Assembly: GCA_043775015.1 (NCBI GenBank)
Contig: JAYVSV010000047.1
Location: 67,876 to 131,875 of the forward strand
From: Verrucomicrobiota bacterium
GTDB taxonomy: Bacteria > Verrucomicrobiota > Verrucomicrobiia > Limisphaerales > CANJXF01
Length of the DNA stretch: 64,000 nucleotides
Direction of reading: 5' to 3'
Below, one piece after another: positions 204 through 31,567 of this stretch. Each line of letters starts with the position of its first letter. Positions within the stretch are counted from its first letter, which is position 1. Position numbers and translations under genes: made by a program. The notes below the pieces were generated by a model. That model was not told where the DNA came from. It ran no database searches and worked only from the letters and a program-made list of their open reading frames with translations.

Positions 204-302
204 TTTTAGCCGTTACTCCGAACTTGGATTGTTTCAATTTTGCGCAACGAAGCCGATTTCGTAGTTGCTCAAATTACATCGTTCCTTAACGTTCGTTCCA
301 AG

Positions 303-3300
303 ATGCCTCTGGCTTGGAACGAAATCCGACACCGCGCAATTAAGTTTGCCAACGACTGGCCCAATGCCGCCAGCGAATCCGCCGACAAACAAACCTTCTG
401 GAACGAATTCTTCGATGTCTTTGGCGTGGCGCGCAAAACCGTGGCCTCCTTTGAAGCGCCGGTGAAGAAAGTCTCCGGCCACGATGGTTTCATTGATTTG
501 TTTTGGAAAGGTCAACTGATCGTCGAACACAAGTCGCTCGGCGGAAATCTCAGCAAAGCGCAGTCGCAGGCTTTCGATTACATTCAGGCGCTCGCCGCCG
601 AAGGGAAGCACAACGAAATTCCGCGCTACGTCATCGTCTCCGACTTTGCGCGCATCGTTCTCTACGACCTCGAACCCGAGGAACAGAAAGACTTGCCGCT
701 GTTCAATAATCGCCGCGTGCAGATTGCGGCGGAATTTCCGCTCAACGAATTTCACAAGAACATCCGCCCGTTCGCCTTCATCGCGGGCTACAAACAGCAA
801 AAGCTCGATCCTGAAGACCCGGCCAATCTCGAAGCCGCGAAGATCATGGCCAATCTTCACGACGCGCTCAAAGCCGGGAACTACATCGGCCACGAACTCC
901 GCGTCTTTCTCGTCCGCATTCTCTTTTGCCTCTTTGCCGAAGACGCCGGCATCTTTCCGCAGCCACGCCAGTTCGAGCTTTACCTGACCAACCACACTGC
1001 GCCCGACGGCTCCGACCTCGGCACCAAGCTCGCGCATCTTTTCCAAATCCTAAACATCGAAGTCTCGAAGCGGCAAAAGAACCTTGACGAAGACCTCGCC
1101 GAATTTCCTTACGTGAACGGCGACCTGTTCAAAGAGCAACTCAAGTTCGCCGATTTCAACAGCGACATGCGCAACGCTCTTCTCGCCGCGTGCGCGTTTC
1201 GTTGGGAAAAGATTTCTCCTGCCGTCTTCGGTTCGCTCTTTCAGGAAGTGATGCTCGCTCCGGAACGCCGCCAGCTTGGCGCGCATTACACTGCCGAGAA
1301 AAACATCATGAAGGTCGTCCGGTCGCTTTTCCTCAATGACCTCCGCGCGGAACTGGAAGCGATCAAGACCGACAAATCCACCCGGCGCGCGGCGCGGCTC
1401 GAAGAATTTCACCAGAAGCTCTCCCGCCTGTGTTTTTTCGATCCCGCGTGCGGTTGCGGCAACTTTCTTGTCATCACCTACCGCGAATTGCGCGCGCTGG
1501 AGTTGGAAGTGCTCAAGCTCATTTACGGCAAGCAGACGGAAATGACGCTCGACGCCGTGAACAAACTTTCCACGCTCGACGTGGACCAGATGTTTGGCAT
1601 TGAGATTGAAGAATTCCCGGCGCGCATTGCGGAAGTGGCGCTCTGGCTGACCGACCATCAAGCGAACATGGAATTGTCGATTGCCTTCACGCAACGCTAC
1701 CTCCGCATCCCGCTGCGCAAGAGTCCGCACATCCACGTCGGCAACGCGCTGCGCATGGATTGGAAACAAGTGCTCGCGCCGGAGAAATGTTCTTACATTT
1801 TGGGCAATCCGCCGTTTGTGGGAAAGCACTTGATGAACGGAGGCCAAGATGAAGACATGGCTGTCGTGTGGGGCGAATTAAATGGCGCTGGCTTTCTCGA
1901 CTATGTAACCGGCTGGTACGCCAAAGCAGCCAATTACATAGCAGGAACCAAAATCGTAGTTGGATTCGTTTCAACAAACTCGATTACGCAAGGCGAGCAA
2001 GTTGGAATTTTGTGGAACGAGCTATTCCAGAAATACGGAATCAAAATCCACTTTGCTCATCGCACCTTCGCTTGGCAAAGCGAAGCACGCGGTCGCGCCC
2101 ATGTTCATGTTGTCATCGTGGGCTTTGCTGCGTTCAACACACTCACAAAGAAGATTTACGACTACCACGATGATGAAGATCGTCCAGTCGTTTCTACAGC
2201 AGCGAACATCAGCCCATATTTGATTGACGCAGCGGATATCGCGTTGCCGATTCGCCGCAACCCAATTTGCGCGGTTCCGTTCATCGTCAACGGCAACAAA
2301 CCAGCAGATGGCGGTTTTCTCATCGTTGAAGATGATCAACGAAAAACTTTTCTTGAGAACAATCCGGGTGCCGCGCCTTACCTCCGCGAGATGTTAAGTG
2401 CTGACCAGTATCTGAATGGAGCAAAGCGCTGGGTGCTTTGGTTAATCGACGCGCCTCCACAGGTTGTGAAAGACAATCCCGACGTTCACGAACGGGTAAA
2501 GGCTGTGCGCGAATTCAGATTACGAAGTCCGAAGGAATCGACAAAACGAATGGCGGATAAGCCATCGCTCTTTGATCAAATCCGACAGCCGACTTCACGC
2601 TATTTACTCATTCCACGTCATTCATCCGAAAATCGGCGCTACGTACCGTTTGGCTATTTCACACCCGACTATATTATTTCCGATAGTTGCACAGCGATTC
2701 CAGACGCGACGCTTTATCATTTTGCGGTGATTTCATCGGCTATGCATATGTCGTGGCTTCGCCAAGTGTGCGGTCGCATCAAGTCTGATTTTCGCTACTC
2801 AAACAAACTTGTTTACAACAACTTCCCCTGGCCGCAAACGCCGAGCGAGGCGCAGAAGACTGCGGTGGAAAAGGCCGCGCAAGCCGTGCTCGATGCCCGC
2901 GCGCAATTTATGTCCCCGGAGGGGACAGGGAAATTAGCCGGGGGTTGCAGCGCAGCGGAAACCCCCGGTCACATCCAAAAAGGAAAGGCACCCCGGAGGG
3001 GTGCCGGAACCGCCGCGCCGCCCGCCTTCCGCGACCCCGCCGGGGTCGAATCTCTTTCGGACGTTGATCCCGGGGGTATCGCTGGCGCTCAACCCCCGGC
3101 TAATCTCCCGCATCCCTCCGGGATAAAATCCTGCACGCTGGCCGACCTCTACGATCCCGTCGCCATGCCACCCGCGCTCGCCAAAGCGCATTCGGAACTC
3201 GACCGCGCCGTGGACCGTTGCTACCGCAAAGAACCTTTCGCCAGCGACCGCGCCCGCGTGGAATACCTCTTCCAACTCTACGAGAAATTGACCGCGCCTT

Positions 3301-3458
3301 TGATTGCTGCCGCGAACGCGAAACCGAAACGCGCAAAATCGCCGTATGCCAAGTCGCCGCGCAATCCATCGCATCCAAGCCTGACGCCGGAAAAATCATT
3401 TGGCGATGCTGCCCACTTTTACGGCAAAGAAGATTACACGCCTTATCACGCTCCTTGA
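303..3458 (+). CDS. MmeI-family type IIL/IIG restriction-modification enzyme (N-terminal PD-(D/E)XK nuclease fused to an N6-adenine DNA methyltransferase)
   Basis: The N-terminus MPLAWNEIRHRAIKFANDW...FWNEFFDVFGV...GFIDLFWKGQLIVEHKS carries a D-x9-E-x-K nuclease motif. It also has the SAM-binding FFDPACGCGNFL, the catalytic LGNPPFVGK, and the C-terminal TLADLYDP..MP..L.KAH..LD. I prefer the ATG at 303 over the TTG at 240. Confidence 0.8.
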   Translation: MPLAWNEIRHRAIKFANDWPNAASESADKQTFWNEFFDVFGVARKTVASFEAPVKKVSGHDGFIDLFWKGQLIVEHKSLGGNLSKAQSQAFDYIQALAAEGKHNEIPRYVIVSDFARIVLYDLEPEEQKDLPLFNNRRVQIAAEFPLNEFHKNIRPFAFIAGYKQQKLDPEDPANLEAAKIMANLHDALKAGNYIGHELRVFLVRILFCLFAEDAGIFPQPRQFELYLTNHTAPDGSDLGTKLAHLFQILNIEVSKRQKNLDEDLAEFPYVNGDLFKEQLKFADFNSDMRNALLAACAFRWEKISPAVFGSLFQEVMLAPERRQLGAHYTAEKNIMKVVRSLFLNDLRAELEAIKTDKSTRRAARLEEFHQKLSRLCFFDPACGCGNFLVITYRELRALELEVLKLIYGKQTEMTLDAVNKLSTLDVDQMFGIEIEEFPARIAEVALWLTDHQANMELSIAFTQRYLRIPLRKSPHIHVGNALRMDWKQVLAPEKCSYILGNPPFVGKHLMNGGQDEDMAVVWGELNGAGFLDYVTGWYAKAANYIAGTKIVVGFVSTNSITQGEQVGILWNELFQKYGIKIHFAHRTFAWQSEARGRAHVHVVIVGFAAFNTLTKKIYDYHDDEDRPVVSTAANISPYLIDAADIALPIRRNPICAVPFIVNGNKPADGGFLIVEDDQRKTFLENNPGAAPYLREMLSADQYLNGAKRWVLWLIDAPPQVVKDNPDVHERVKAVREFRLRSPKESTKRMADKPSLFDQIRQPTSRYLLIPRHSSENRRYVPFGYFTPDYIISDSCTAIPDATLYHFAVISSAMHMSWLRQVCGRIKSDFRYSNKLVYNNFPWPQTPSEAQKTAVEKAAQAVLDARAQFMSPEGTGKLAGGCSAAETPGHIQKGKAPRRGAGTAAPPAFRDPAGVESLSDVDPGGIAGAQPPANLPHPSGIKSCTLADLYDPVAMPPALAKAHSELDRAVDRCYRKEPFASDRARVEYLFQLYEKLTAPLIAAANAKPKRAKSPYAKSPRNPSHPSLTPEKSFGDAAHFYGKEDYTPYHAP
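2912..3124. mobile_element. 213-bp nested-palindrome MITE-like element lying in frame inside the MmeI-family gene
   Basis: The ends are inverted (gtccccggaggggac at 2912-2926 and atccctccgggat at 3112-3124). The subterminal arms agccgggggttg (2936-2947) and caacccccggct (3090-3101) pair with each other. The centre is the hairpin ggcaccccggaggggtgcc (2987-3005). The architecture matches the intergenic element at 29998-30184. Confidence 0.7.
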
Positions 3459-3479
3459 CTATCGGGTGAGCTTATGGCG

Positions 3480-3551
3480 GGTAGGGTGCGTCACTCCTCC
3501 GTGCGCGCCGTTGGTTGCCAGCCATGCCCGGCGCGCACGGAGTGACGCGCC
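3480..3551. repeat. REP-like palindromic element (gtagggtgcgtcactccgtgcgcgccg / cggcgcgcacggagtgacgcgccctac arms)
   Basis: Two inverted arms of about 27 bp separated by about 18 bp. The same arms recur at 27965-28031. Confidence 0.85.
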
Positions 3552-3871
3552 CTACCTCACCACCCAGGCTTTCGGACATAAAATATCCGGTTCCCTGGTT
3601 CCCCCACGGATGTCCAATCCTCCTTGAGAAATCCGTTCCATTGGAAAAATATTTTTTATGCGCTGCGGCCCTGCGCAAGGCGGCAGCATCCTCCAACTCG
3701 TTCCTGCGAATTCAGGACTGACCGTGAACATCTGCGAACTGGGTCCGAGTGCGTGAGTAAATTCATTTACAATAATATCCGCTGTCCACAAACGTCGGAT
3801 AAGACGCAGAAGATGGCGGTGGATTGCAGAAAATTCTTGGTACGGCCGCAGTCTTTGCGGATGATTGTTGC

Positions 3872-29916: not shown

Positions 29917-29992
29917 CTCACAGACATTCAAAACGTCCTCCAACCGTTTGCCCTTCGATCCAAACCGTTTTGTGGCGCGAAGTCTGGCCGCG
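29917..29992 (-). pseudogene. Orphan remnant of a yggU (DUF167) 3' end
   Basis: It encodes RGQTSRHKTVWIEGQTV... A 42-bp core (29951-29992) is identical to 30239-30280 inside the intact gene. Confidence 0.8.
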
Positions 29993-29997
29993 TTTTT

Positions 29998-30184
29998 ATC
30001 CCGGAGGGATTGCCGAAAATAGCCCGGCGTTTTAACGTCGGGAAATTGTGAGGAAAATAAAAAAGTCCCGAAGGGACGGCTGACGCTTGCCGCGCGTTTT
30101 CGTCCGTCCCTTCGGGACTAACTTCCTTTGGTGAATTGACCCGGCGTTAAAACGCCGGGCTATTCTCAAATGTCCCTCCGGGAC
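29998..30184. mobile_element. MITE-like nested-palindrome element of about 190 bp (same family as 2912-3124)
   Basis: atcccggagggat ... aatagcccggcgttttaacg ... gtcccgaagggac / gtcccttcgggac ... cgttaaaacgccgggctatt ... gtccctccgggac. Confidence 0.8.
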
Positions 30185-30196
30185 TTGTGGAATTAT

Positions 30197-30496
30197 CTAC
30201 TTGGATTTTAGGTCGGTCAAAACTTCCTCAACTGTTTTCCCTTCGATCCAAACCGTTTTGTGGCGCGAAGTCTGGCCGCGCACGATTTGGATTCTGCCGC
30301 GAGAACAATTCAACTTTTCGGCAAGCAAATCGACCAGAGCCTGATTCGCGGCGGCATCGACGGGCGGCGCGGTCACTTTGATTTTTAATTCGTCGCCGAG
30401 CGGTGCGCCGATTTCGTTGGTCGAAGCGCGCGGCTGCAATTTCACGGCGAGATAAACTCCGTTGGCGTGCAGGCGAATGAAACCGGGTTGCGACAT
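30197..30496 (-). CDS. yggU: DUF167 (YggU) family protein
   Basis: MSQPGFIRLHANGVYLAVKLQPRASTNEIG...LKIKVTAPPVDAAANQALVDLLAEKL...IQIVRGQTSRHKTVWIEG. Only the last 99 codons of the 312-aa track ORF are credible. Confidence 0.85.
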   Translation of the reverse strand: MSQPGFIRLHANGVYLAVKLQPRASTNEIGAPLGDELKIKVTAPPVDAAANQALVDLLAEKLNCSRGRIQIVRGQTSRHKTVWIEGKTVEEVLTDLKSK

Positions 30497-30652
30497 TTCA
30501 GAAAAAAAACAGGAAACGACACGAATTTCACGAATTATCACGAACTTTCGGAAAACCGTTTTGAATTCGTGCCAATTCGTGAAATTCGTGTCTGTCTTGT
30601 TTCCGATTGTTGCTGCCACTCGACTTTCATCTGAGCTGATGGCAAATTTTCC

Positions 30653-31567
30653 GTGGTGGAAAATAAACTCGAACAACTTCGCGCGCTGTTGCGCTCTTAC
30701 GGTTCCTGCCTCGTCGCTTATTCCGGCGGCGTGGATTCGGTTTTTCTCGCGCACGTTGCCCACGAAATTCTCGGTAAAAAATCTTTGGCGGTGATTGCGG
30801 ATTCGCCGAGCTTGCCACGACGTGAATTTCAGGAGGCCATGGAAATCGCAGAGAAATTTTCGTTTCCAGTTCGCGTTGTTCAGACCAATGAATTTCAAAA
30901 TGAATCGTATCTGGCGAACCCGAACAACCGCTGTTATTTCTGCAAACACGAATTGTTTACGGAATTGGAGCCGATTGCGCGCGACGAAAAATTCGCAGTG
31001 ATTGCCTATGGCGAAAACGCGAGCGACATCGGCGATCATCGTCCGGGCGCGAAAGCGGCGTCGGAATTTCAAGTGTGCGCACCGCTCAAGCAAGTGGGTT
31101 TGACGAAAGCGCAGATTCGCGAACTTTCCGCGCAACTCGGTTTGCCGACGGCGGACAAACCGCAGATGGCCTGCTTGAGTTCGCGCATTCCCTACGGCGA
31201 ATCGGTCACGCCGGAAAAGCTGCGGATGATTGAAGAAGCGGAATATATTTTAAAGGATTTAGGTTTTTTTGACGTGCGGGTTCGACACCATGAACTGGGT
31301 TCAAAGTTTAATGGTCAAAGTTCAAAGTTGCCTGTCGCTTCGGGAGAACTTGAAACTTTAAACCTGAAACCTGGAACTATCACGCATCTGGCTCGCATCG
31401 AAGTTGGCCCAAGCGAAATTAAACGACTTTTCGAAAACGACGCATTTTCCGAGATTGCGAATGCATTAAAGAAAATCGGTTACGCCCACGTCACGCTCGA
31501 CCTGCAAGGATATCGTCGCGGCAGCATGAACGAAGCCCCAATTCAGTTTGGCAAAGTCAAATCTTAG
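30653..31567 (+). CDS. larE: ATP-dependent sacrificial sulfur transferase LarE (PP-loop ATPase family)
   Basis: The PP-loop is YSGGVDS. It also has NRCYFCK and the sacrificial-Cys region PQMACLSSRIPYG. Confidence 0.8.
   Translation: MVENKLEQLRALLRSYGSCLVAYSGGVDSVFLAHVAHEILGKKSLAVIADSPSLPRREFQEAMEIAEKFSFPVRVVQTNEFQNESYLANPNNRCYFCKHELFTELEPIARDEKFAVIAYGENASDIGDHRPGAKAASEFQVCAPLKQVGLTKAQIRELSAQLGLPTADKPQMACLSSRIPYGESVTPEKLRMIEEAEYILKDLGFFDVRVRHHELGSKFNGQSSKLPVASGELETLNLKPGTITHLARIEVGPSEIKRLFENDAFSEIANALKKIGYAHVTLDLQGYRRGSMNEAPIQFGKVKS

Follow-up and report, generated by a model that had tools for sequence, protein, structure and literature searches.

A REPIN-like palindromic element read in frame within an MmeI-family restriction-modification gene of a Verrucomicrobiota bacterium

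Rickettsia palindromic elements (RPEs) are repeats of 100-150 bp that lie in frame in genes, are translated, and are tolerated in the surface regions of the proteins that carry them; we know of no transposase resident with them. Their description reportedly goes back to Ogata and colleagues in 2000. Di Nocera, De Gregorio and Rocco (2013; BMC Genomics 14:522, PMC3733652) divided prokaryotic repetitive extragenic palindromic sequences (REPs) between a GTAG and a CGTC superfamily, connected them with tyrosine transposases ('REPtrons'), assigned RPE-4 and RPE-6 to the CGTC superfamily, and found the highest number of intragenic, in-frame GTAG REPs in the verrucomicrobium Opitutus terrae; the REP-encoded stretches are mostly 20-30 residues long, reaching up to 82, and Additional file 3 of that paper includes a 53-residue REP dimer in the 'N-6 DNA methylase' Oter_3011. 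Here we describe a 213-bp palindromic element at positions 2912-3124 of a 64,000-nucleotide stretch of DNA from a Verrucomicrobiota bacterium of the order Limisphaerales (assembly GCA_043775015.1, contig JAYVSV010000047.1, positions 67,876 to 131,875; hereafter the window), where it is read through in frame by an MmeI-family restriction-modification (R-M) gene. We consider it likely that this insert is a non-autonomous mobile element of the REP or REPIN (inverted REP doublet) kind, lodged in a tolerant loop of an enzyme that probably still works. An earlier note on this DNA knew of no good documentation of such behaviour in Planctomycetes-Verrucomicrobia-Chlamydiae (PVC) bacteria; the O. terrae catalogue of 2013 (PMC3733652) shows that in-frame REPs are already documented there.

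The plus-strand open reading frame (ORF) in question extends from a TTG at position 240 to 3458 and spans the insert (GTCCCCGGAGGGGAC ... ATCCCTCCGGGAT; 71 codons) without a stop. As the earlier note had proposed, the insert is a palindrome: 2912-3124 folds as one long nested hairpin with a free energy of -138.7 kcal/mol (z -8.1; none of 200 shuffles reached this stability), and dinucleotide shuffles of 2901-3140 gave a z of -8.8. When the translated protein, numbered from TTG 240, was aligned with MmeI (PDB 5HR4) using phmmer, residues 22-891 matched MmeI 1-848 and residues 966-1030 matched MmeI 851-915. At the insertion point MmeI has 2 residues, the nearest orthologue (P0002) has 3, and the window protein has 75. 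P0002 is 82% identical over 869 residues with zero gaps, and reads AGS in place of the 75; its DNA (L130) has CAA TTC GCC GGC TCT ACA CTT where the window has CAA TTT ATG [...] AAA TCC TGC ACG CTG. Orthologue alignment revealed no residues homologous to the insert at this point, only unrelated palindromes. The in-frame insert also splits the Pfam MmeI_C match, which covers profile positions 24-82 only and lies after it. In line with this, the distance from YNNFPWP to TLADLYDP is 101 residues in the window protein, 28-29 residues in 47 of the 74 orthologues from public genomes in which it could be measured (80 loci were collected), and 28-33 residues in 102 of 114 database homologues (120 collected). 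The earlier count of 71 extra codons was correct for the DNA, whereas the net gain over P0002 is 72 residues. Rfam matches in 2500-3600 (among them MIR1437, whose 45.6 bits compare with a gathering score of 168) were sub-threshold hairpin look-alikes and were set aside as chance matches to a long hairpin.

Each arm of the element, at about 95 nucleotides (nt), is composed of three hairpins in the order H1 (outer), an NTAG-tagged, REP-like H2, a spacer and H3 (inner) (Table 1), and the two arms, 2912-3005 and 3032-3124, are about 75% complementary over their whole length. The same architecture had been noted for an intergenic element at 29998-30184, and the arms of the two do align module by module, with tag and H2 of the insert aligning with the ATAG-CCCGGCG..CGCCGGG of what we term the sister subfamily. 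When half-elements were aligned in this way, compensating changes were seen in the H2 stem (CCCGGCG/CGCCGGG, CCCAGCG/CGCTGGG, CCCACGA/TCGTGGG and CCGGGGG/CCCCCGG). A REP unit is by definition a short, imperfect palindrome preceded by a conserved 5' tetranucleotide, GTAG or CGTC. The tag is TTAG in the window, ATAG in the sister subfamily, CTAG at locus L013 and GTAG in a copy of genome G014, and so appears to be of the GTAG type with a degenerate first base.

The genome that contains the window (4.39 Mb in 206 contigs, 92.8% complete) was searched for copies of the element by BLAST and by pattern, and a profile of the arms (nhmmer) found 29 arms at 18 loci. The insert and a copy at C94:72353-72552 form one subfamily (TTAG, CCGGGGG), while the element at 29998-30184 is a member of the sister subfamily (ATAG, CCCGGCG), the commoner of the two, which also flanks a Y1 transposase gene at C29:11429-11872. 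Among related genomes of the same order, BLAST with the 213 bp alone gave matches in 22 of 41, with full-length copies at 69-75% identity in G024, G027, G016, G014, G021 and G007; G016 yielded 41 hits, more than this genome. The search for further copies thus turned up the C94 element and dozens in relatives, and the full-length copies that were inspected lie between genes or in doubtful ORFs. Within this genome only the MmeI copy, out of the 18 loci, falls in a credible gene; the long ORFs that run over copies on C3, C94, C101, C60, C29 and C34 are spurious in appearance or precede the real start. The likeness to RPEs drawn in the earlier note therefore holds for the behaviour of the element, but to speak of its colonising coding genes overstates the case here.

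Outside this genome, the insert's own subfamily was found in a second gene. In two genomes of the same genus (G004:C384 and G006:C409) a distant MmeI-like gene with MmeI_Mtase, TRD and C domains carries it in the reading frame used in the window (...NLAGG...LPPANFSNPSGIL), and the encoded peptides match that of the window at E 3e-9. The site is a different loop, directly after ...DTFPW(A/P)QFEDV, and a few substitutions and a 3-codon indel separate one copy from the other. It appears from this comparison that the in-frame state in this gene outlived a speciation; the G006 ORF is only 280 residues long and may be broken.

Three further observations concern the wider family. A very stable palindrome of about 220 bp at C123:2300-2520 (-172 kcal/mol for 280 nt) has the H1/H2/H3 build but different sequences; since the arm profile missed it, the superfamily is larger than 18 loci. 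The sister-subfamily copy at 29998-30184 is bracketed by 52-nt direct repeats (96% identical) at 29941-29992 and 30229-30280, which on the minus strand correspond to the 3' end of the gene at 30197-31135. Finally, in another Limisphaerales metagenome-assembled genome, the MmeI orthologue has a sister-type arm (TTTTATCCCGAAGGGAT...ACTAGCCCAGCG) just downstream of it (L013:4571-4619), which is cut by the contig end.

The arms tie the element to Y1 tyrosine transposases. The C29 gene encodes a 148-residue Y1 protein (Pfam Y1_Tnp, E 1.7e-27) and has one sister-type arm directly upstream and two doublets downstream. A second Y1 gene, at C56:54618-55040, is 41% identical to it, and these two different Y1 genes are present in one copy each. 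Arms of the insert's type were found on both sides of a Y1 gene in three other genera (G016:C1:13320-13745, G027:C265:1292-1717 and G037:C20:8917-9342), in a layout exemplified by locus L129, with an arm at 1376-1471, the Y1 gene at 1501-1929 and an inverted arm at 1950-2046; L111 has the same layout with arms of the sister type. In a tree of Y1 proteins, extracted by tblastn, the three Y1s flanked by insert-type arms form their own clade and those flanked by sister-type arms another. Since insert-type arms flank Y1 genes in other genera, the 213-bp insert would be the same unit without its transposase gene, that is, a REPIN- or MITE-like form (a MITE is a miniature transposable element with inverted repeats) of an arm-Y1-arm unit. 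Beside this, in the segment C56:54500-55160 the second Y1 gene has repeats of another three-hairpin family on its flanks (GCCCCGAACGGGGC, followed by AAAGCCCAGGGCAACGCCCTGGG, and so on), and these flanks, like the C123 palindrome, represent further subfamilies of the same build. G024 has two Y1 copies that are 83-84% identical to the C29 gene, and these look more like an insertion sequence.

These data bear on whether the segment might instead be a native, lineage-specific linker of the protein whose palindromy is incidental. Loop length does vary in the family, with forms 3-4 residues longer ('FLPPKGDS') and 14-17 residues longer ('GDGRxGFLP'). The DNA of the segment, however, recurs between genes in its own genome and in relatives, its arms flank transposase genes, the nearest orthologue lacks it, and its G+C content is 68.5% against 53.9% in the rest of the gene. 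The copies in relatives, the Y1-flanking arms and the insert-free orthologue refute a native linker, which we regard as barely credible.

It appears more probable that an element with two inverted arms, between which a Y1 gene (of the HUH type, IS200-like or RAYT-like; RAYT, REP-associated tyrosine transposase) sits elsewhere and is absent here, was mobilised in trans as single-stranded hairpin DNA by a cognate Y1 transposase, as in IS200/IS605 and with the E. coli TnpA-REP protein. Its landing place would have been a loop of 3 residues that follows the first helix in the C-terminal bundle of an MmeI-type enzyme, and it would have persisted there through a length that is a multiple of three, a stop-free frame in the one used, and a position away from the DNA-binding and catalytic parts. 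The outcome would be an enzyme that is probably functional and carries 71 extra disordered residues.

What the earlier note had not reported is that in many relatives of the gene this same MmeI loop is occupied by other palindromic repeats. Other orthologues have different long inserts at exactly the insertion point of the window; the DNA of eight was checked (Table 1). At least 12 other full-length orthologues carry long palindromic inserts in this loop, and these belong to at least seven distinct families, which are unrelated in sequence and add from 25 to about 90 residues. In a tree of 173 orthologues that used the sequence upstream of the loop, the 13 long-insert alleles do not group together and require at least 11 changes. 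The loop is therefore tolerant: in other MmeI orthologues, unrelated palindromic families have repeatedly settled there. That the linkers of L013, L017 and L019 are homologues of the window insert, descended from one old insertion, was considered and rejected; the arm profile finds nothing in them, they fall in different parts of the gene tree, and their DNA belongs to a different, decaying family, the intact protein form of which ends in PTK, read as a GTAGG tag on the opposite strand.

Recurrent occupation could suggest that the insert has been co-opted, whether as an mRNA hairpin that tunes expression of a potentially toxic nuclease, as a recombination-prone on/off palindrome or as a disordered tether. 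The number of families and of independent changes at the one loop would be compatible with this, as would the conservation of the element in frame across two species in the MmeI-like paralogue. The occupying elements are, however, of widely differing length and without sequence relationship, and the three that are decaying (z -0.4 to -4.7) fit neutral passengers better than a selected function, so that we think co-option very improbable.

The precision of the site can be explained by the loop being a very short, solvent-exposed turn between two helices. We also considered whether, in Verrucomicrobiota, Planctomycetota and their neighbours, REP/RAYT-type elements actively target the AR.QF-(S/T)LADLYDP loop as a landing pad, over and above its tolerance of them, a reading that we find doubtful. 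Several filled alleles have common flanks, TT(T/C)ATG ... AAAAYC, that pair with each other, and in the 'LPPxG' class of short-loop alleles the DNA contains small hairpins at the insertion point, so elements might home to a DNA hairpin at this site or replace each other there. Such hairpins were seen at the landing site of L033, L035, L075, L076 and L084, whose loops are 4 residues longer ('FLPPKGDS / HLPPRGMS'), with stems that differ (CTCCC-AAG-GGAG, CTTCC-GCC-GGAAG and TGCCGC-CGC-GCGGCA); they could be an effect of Pro/Gly codons, the footprint of a lost element or an element attractor. Were targeting true, dispensable, horizontally moving restriction genes could ferry repeats between genomes.

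Insertions in MmeI-family genes are not confined to this loop. Other sites lie near residues 150, 375-382 and 866-870, as located with an automated map of rare insertions in 79 orthologues, which was used for site location only because it split long inserts and lost the fold signal. The orthologue L094 (P0052) has three in-frame palindromic inserts (L094:516-689, L094:1332-1442 and L094:2952-3128): two, in an N-terminal loop and in the C-terminal loop, are copies of a GTAGGGACG... REPIN, and the third is a different element, GTAGGGCTGCG..., near residue 375 at a 'SITG|RAALP' site that is also hit in L004 and L014. L107 (P0116) is longer by about 88 residues at the C-terminal loop, and its methyltransferase domain contains a similar second insert, about 80 residues in length, after ...YRKAADYLTAAAS. 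At the site near 866-870 in a Rhodanobacteraceae MmeI homologue (L089:3934-4209), a triple REP, CCTTCTCCCGGAGGGAGAAGG x3 encoding LLPEGEGNSRHR x3, follows YNNFPWPQ in frame (z -7.1), which means that in-frame REPs in MmeI genes are not limited to PVC bacteria. A Kiritimatiellia/Lentisphaeria clade (L043, L052, L053, L058 and L059) has a conserved, non-palindromic insertion of 50 residues after YNNFPWPQ (LNAPGYIQTTPCGEAFCVREAAARTYWTSYHDGG...) with z near 0, and this is a true addition at the protein level, with no repeat element.

The host gene itself has the make-up of an MmeI-family (Type IIL) R-M enzyme. The protein matches all five Pfam domains (MmeI_N, MmeI_hel, MmeI_Mtase, MmeI_TRD and MmeI_C) and aligns with MmeI at E 8.7e-266 (phmmer); it is a five-domain single polypeptide with a PD-(D/E)XK nuclease, an NPPF methyltransferase motif, a target recognition domain (TRD) and a C-terminal bundle. 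The NPPF methyltransferase of this family is a gamma-class N6A enzyme; members of the family place m6A on a single strand and cut about 20/18 nt from their site. Since the alignment with MmeI begins at ATG 303, this is most likely the true start, giving a protein of 1051 residues from which we number below. The nuclease residues D65, E75 and K77 (D...E.K), the S-adenosylmethionine (SAM) motif DPACGCGNF (380-388) and NPPF (502-505) fall in invariant columns of a 40-sequence alignment that includes the window protein, in agreement with the earlier statement that they are intact, and the 1051 codons contain no stop or frameshift anywhere. The TRD is about 50% identical to those of the nearest relatives, and the recognition sequence is thus probably different from theirs. 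The gene follows mfd, which ends near position 203 of the window, and next come an unknown 335-residue ORF and the genes of a CBM48 protein and a DsbD_2 membrane protein. It stands among housekeeping genes as a solitary R-M gene. In eight genomes of the same genus no orthologue was found (best match 30% identity), as expected of a horizontally moving defence gene.

In the MmeI structure (PDB 5HR4; Callahan et al. 2016, PMC4833311), with which the window protein has in common the five domains and the PD-(D/E)XK, SAM and NPPF motifs, a C-terminal helical bundle of residues 826-919 lies behind the TRD. The window protein differs from it by 72 extra residues between MmeI positions 848 and 851, which is the turn after the first helix of this bundle. 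An AlphaFold2 model built with the 40-sequence alignment (mean predicted local distance difference test score (pLDDT) 77, predicted template modelling score 0.70) superimposes on MmeI with a template modelling (TM) score of 0.90. Residues 874-941 were modelled without secondary structure, at a pLDDT of 27-33, between helix 849-870 and helices 946-949 and 957-974. The model that the earlier note had called for thus places the insert in a loop between helices of the C-terminal bundle, and the 71 extra residues are predicted to form a disordered surface loop. We put the chance that the enzyme with its insert is still active at somewhat better than even.

Several observations weigh against a REP/REPIN-type element in a working enzyme. 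The junction of the insertion cannot be placed to the base, because the nearest orthologue is only 82% identical and the flanks are too divergent, and comparison with its DNA showed no clean empty site or target duplication. Only about three copies of the insert's own subfamily are present in this genome; a cognate Y1 gene for that subfamily was not found in the assembly at its 92.8% completeness. The element may have ceased to move here long ago, or the gene may already have carried the insert when it arrived. Moreover, the C29 Y1 protein is classed as NCBIfam transpos_IS200 (66 bits against a cut-off of 55), with no match to a RAYT-specific model; RAYTs proper are single-copy, inherited vertically and separate from IS200 TnpA. 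One of the six frames of the insert is free of stops, the one in use, which is the chance level, with a mean of 1.35 in shuffles. This indicates no special adaptation of the element to being read, and the idea that it evolved to be readable was rejected on this ground. A weak terminator-like hairpin (3032-3048) lies on the coding strand within the insert. A cell that loses an MmeI-type enzyme gives up its nuclease and its methylase at once, which is not lethal. A single-polypeptide R-M gene is harmless to lose, and an inactive yet open gene would be compatible with what is seen.

The last of these points leads to the view that the insertion inactivated or crippled the enzyme and that the frame is open by chance, in a young pseudogene that has not yet acquired stops. 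About 1 in 6 insertions of this copy would stay open by chance, 6 of 11 full-length family copies in this genome have a length divisible by three, and the hairpin in the mRNA would be very stable (-139 kcal/mol), with the terminator-like site inside it. Set against this are the intact catalytic and SAM motifs in a gene free of stops and frameshifts, the modelled disorder of an insert between two helices, the dozen or more other full-length orthologues with long palindromic inserts in the same loop, and the retention of the insert's subfamily in frame in the MmeI-like gene of two species, one of whose ORFs may be broken. Taken together, these data make an inactivated enzyme unlikely, and we favour a REP/REPIN-type element in an enzyme that probably still works.

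Table 1. Features of the insert and its host gene in the window, and inserts in the same loop of other MmeI orthologues
Feature	Position	Strand	Description	Evidence
Palindromic REP-doublet/REPIN-like element	2912..3124	+	213 bp, in-frame read-through, ~71 Gly/Ala/Pro-rich residues	fold, orthologue comparison, copies elsewhere, pLDDT
MmeI-family Type IIL R-M gene	303..3458	+	1051 residues from ATG 303; mechanical ORF starts at TTG 240	five Pfam domains, PDB 5hr4, AlphaFold2 model
H1 outer hairpin	2912..2926	+	GTCCCC-GGA-GGGGAC	module in every family arm as GTCCCGGAGGGAC or ATCCCGGAGGGAT
TTAG tag (2934-2937) and REP-like hairpin H2 (2938-2968)	2934..2968	+	H2: CCGGGGGTT...AAACCCCCGG	inverted repeat I6
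H3 inner hairpin	2987..3005	+	GGCACCCC-GGA-GGGGTGCC	inverted repeat I9, arm alignment
Element centre	3006..3031	+	putative site of Y1 transposase gene in full units	arm - Y1 - inverted arm layout in L111, L129
H3'	3032..3048	+	CGACCCC-GCC-GGGGTCG, also weak terminator-like site	inverted repeat I10, terminator scan
H2' (3070-3099) and inverted tag CTAA (3100-3103)	3070..3103	+	H2': CCGGGGGT...ACCCCCGG	inverted repeats I8, I1
H1'	3112..3124	+	ATCCC-TCC-GGGAT	inverted repeats; 91% identical over 32 nt to end of C94 copy
Sister-subfamily intergenic copy	29998..30184	.	ATAG tag, CCCGGCG hairpin, same three-hairpin arms	fold z -11.9; nhmmer arms E 5e-18, 1e-19
L093 (P0001)			GGGACGG...CCGTCCCTACC REPIN	fold z -9.2
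L094 (P0052)			same family as L093	fold z -9.9
L095 (P0109)			GGAGTGCGGTGAC... family	fold z -8.1
L106 (P0107)			GGGGAGCGCACGCG... family	fold z -9.4
L107 (P0116)			270-nt segment measured	fold z -4.0
L108 (P0035)			three GTAGCGCCGGCG... REPs	fold z -6.4
L109 (P0090)			further family	fold z -3.9
L019, L017, L013			decaying copies of one more family	fold z -4.7, -2.6, -0.4

For annotation, these results mean that a long Gly/Ala/Pro-rich 'linker' of a verrucomicrobial protein can turn out to be a mobile palindrome that is translated. For the biology of mobile elements, they add a well-delimited family whose arms have three hairpins, whose tag is NTAG and whose subfamilies each go with a cognate Y1 clade, and a single protein loop, colonised independently by many unrelated palindromic families, in which the question of tolerant versus targeted sites can be addressed. 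For enzyme engineering, the comparison of orthologues suggests that the loop at MmeI 848-851 accepts 25-90 extra residues.

How, then, does the element compare with those already described? The GTAG REPs of O. terrae are the nearest in setting: they occur in the same phylum, as in-frame REP monomers and dimers, with a DNA methylase among the hosts, a link to tyrosine transposases and a tag of the same kind. They differ, by build rather than by a comparison of sequences, in having one hairpin, where the element described here has three in each arm of about 95 nt, forms a doublet of 180-250 bp, has a degenerate tag base and is low in copy number. RPEs are alike in behaviour only, coming from a different phylum and, in tag, being of the CGTC type as opposed to the GTAG type here. 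With the REPIN-RAYT system (Bertels and Rainey 2011, PMC3116915; Nunvar et al. 2010) the element shares two inverted REPs that form one long hairpin, its non-autonomous state, a Y1/HUH gene flanked by the same repeats, a separate transposase clade for each repeat subfamily and, in this genome, a single copy of each Y1 type. Classical REPINs differ in being about 100 nt long, extragenic and present in hundreds of copies, and the Y1 protein here scores as IS200-type in NCBIfam. Thus the inverted REP hairpins that fold as one, and the same repeats around a Y1/HUH gene, are those of a REP or REPIN, whereas the tens to hundreds of copies usual for these were not found, the profile giving the 29 arms at 18 loci and about three loci for the insert's own subfamily. 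The element has terminal inverted repeats, as classical MITEs of the cut-and-paste, DDE-type do, but no target-site duplication was found at its flanks, CAATTTAT and AAAATCC, which have no direct repeat in common; this fits insertion by a Y1 transposase of the IS200 type, since IS200/IS605-type Y1 insertion makes no target duplication. The element is therefore better named a REP doublet, or a REPIN-like derivative of a Y1-transposase unit, than an RPE. Its distinguishing traits are the three-hairpin arm and its size, an NTAG tag that is degenerate, arm subfamilies that pair with Y1 clades, and one MmeI loop that has been used repeatedly.

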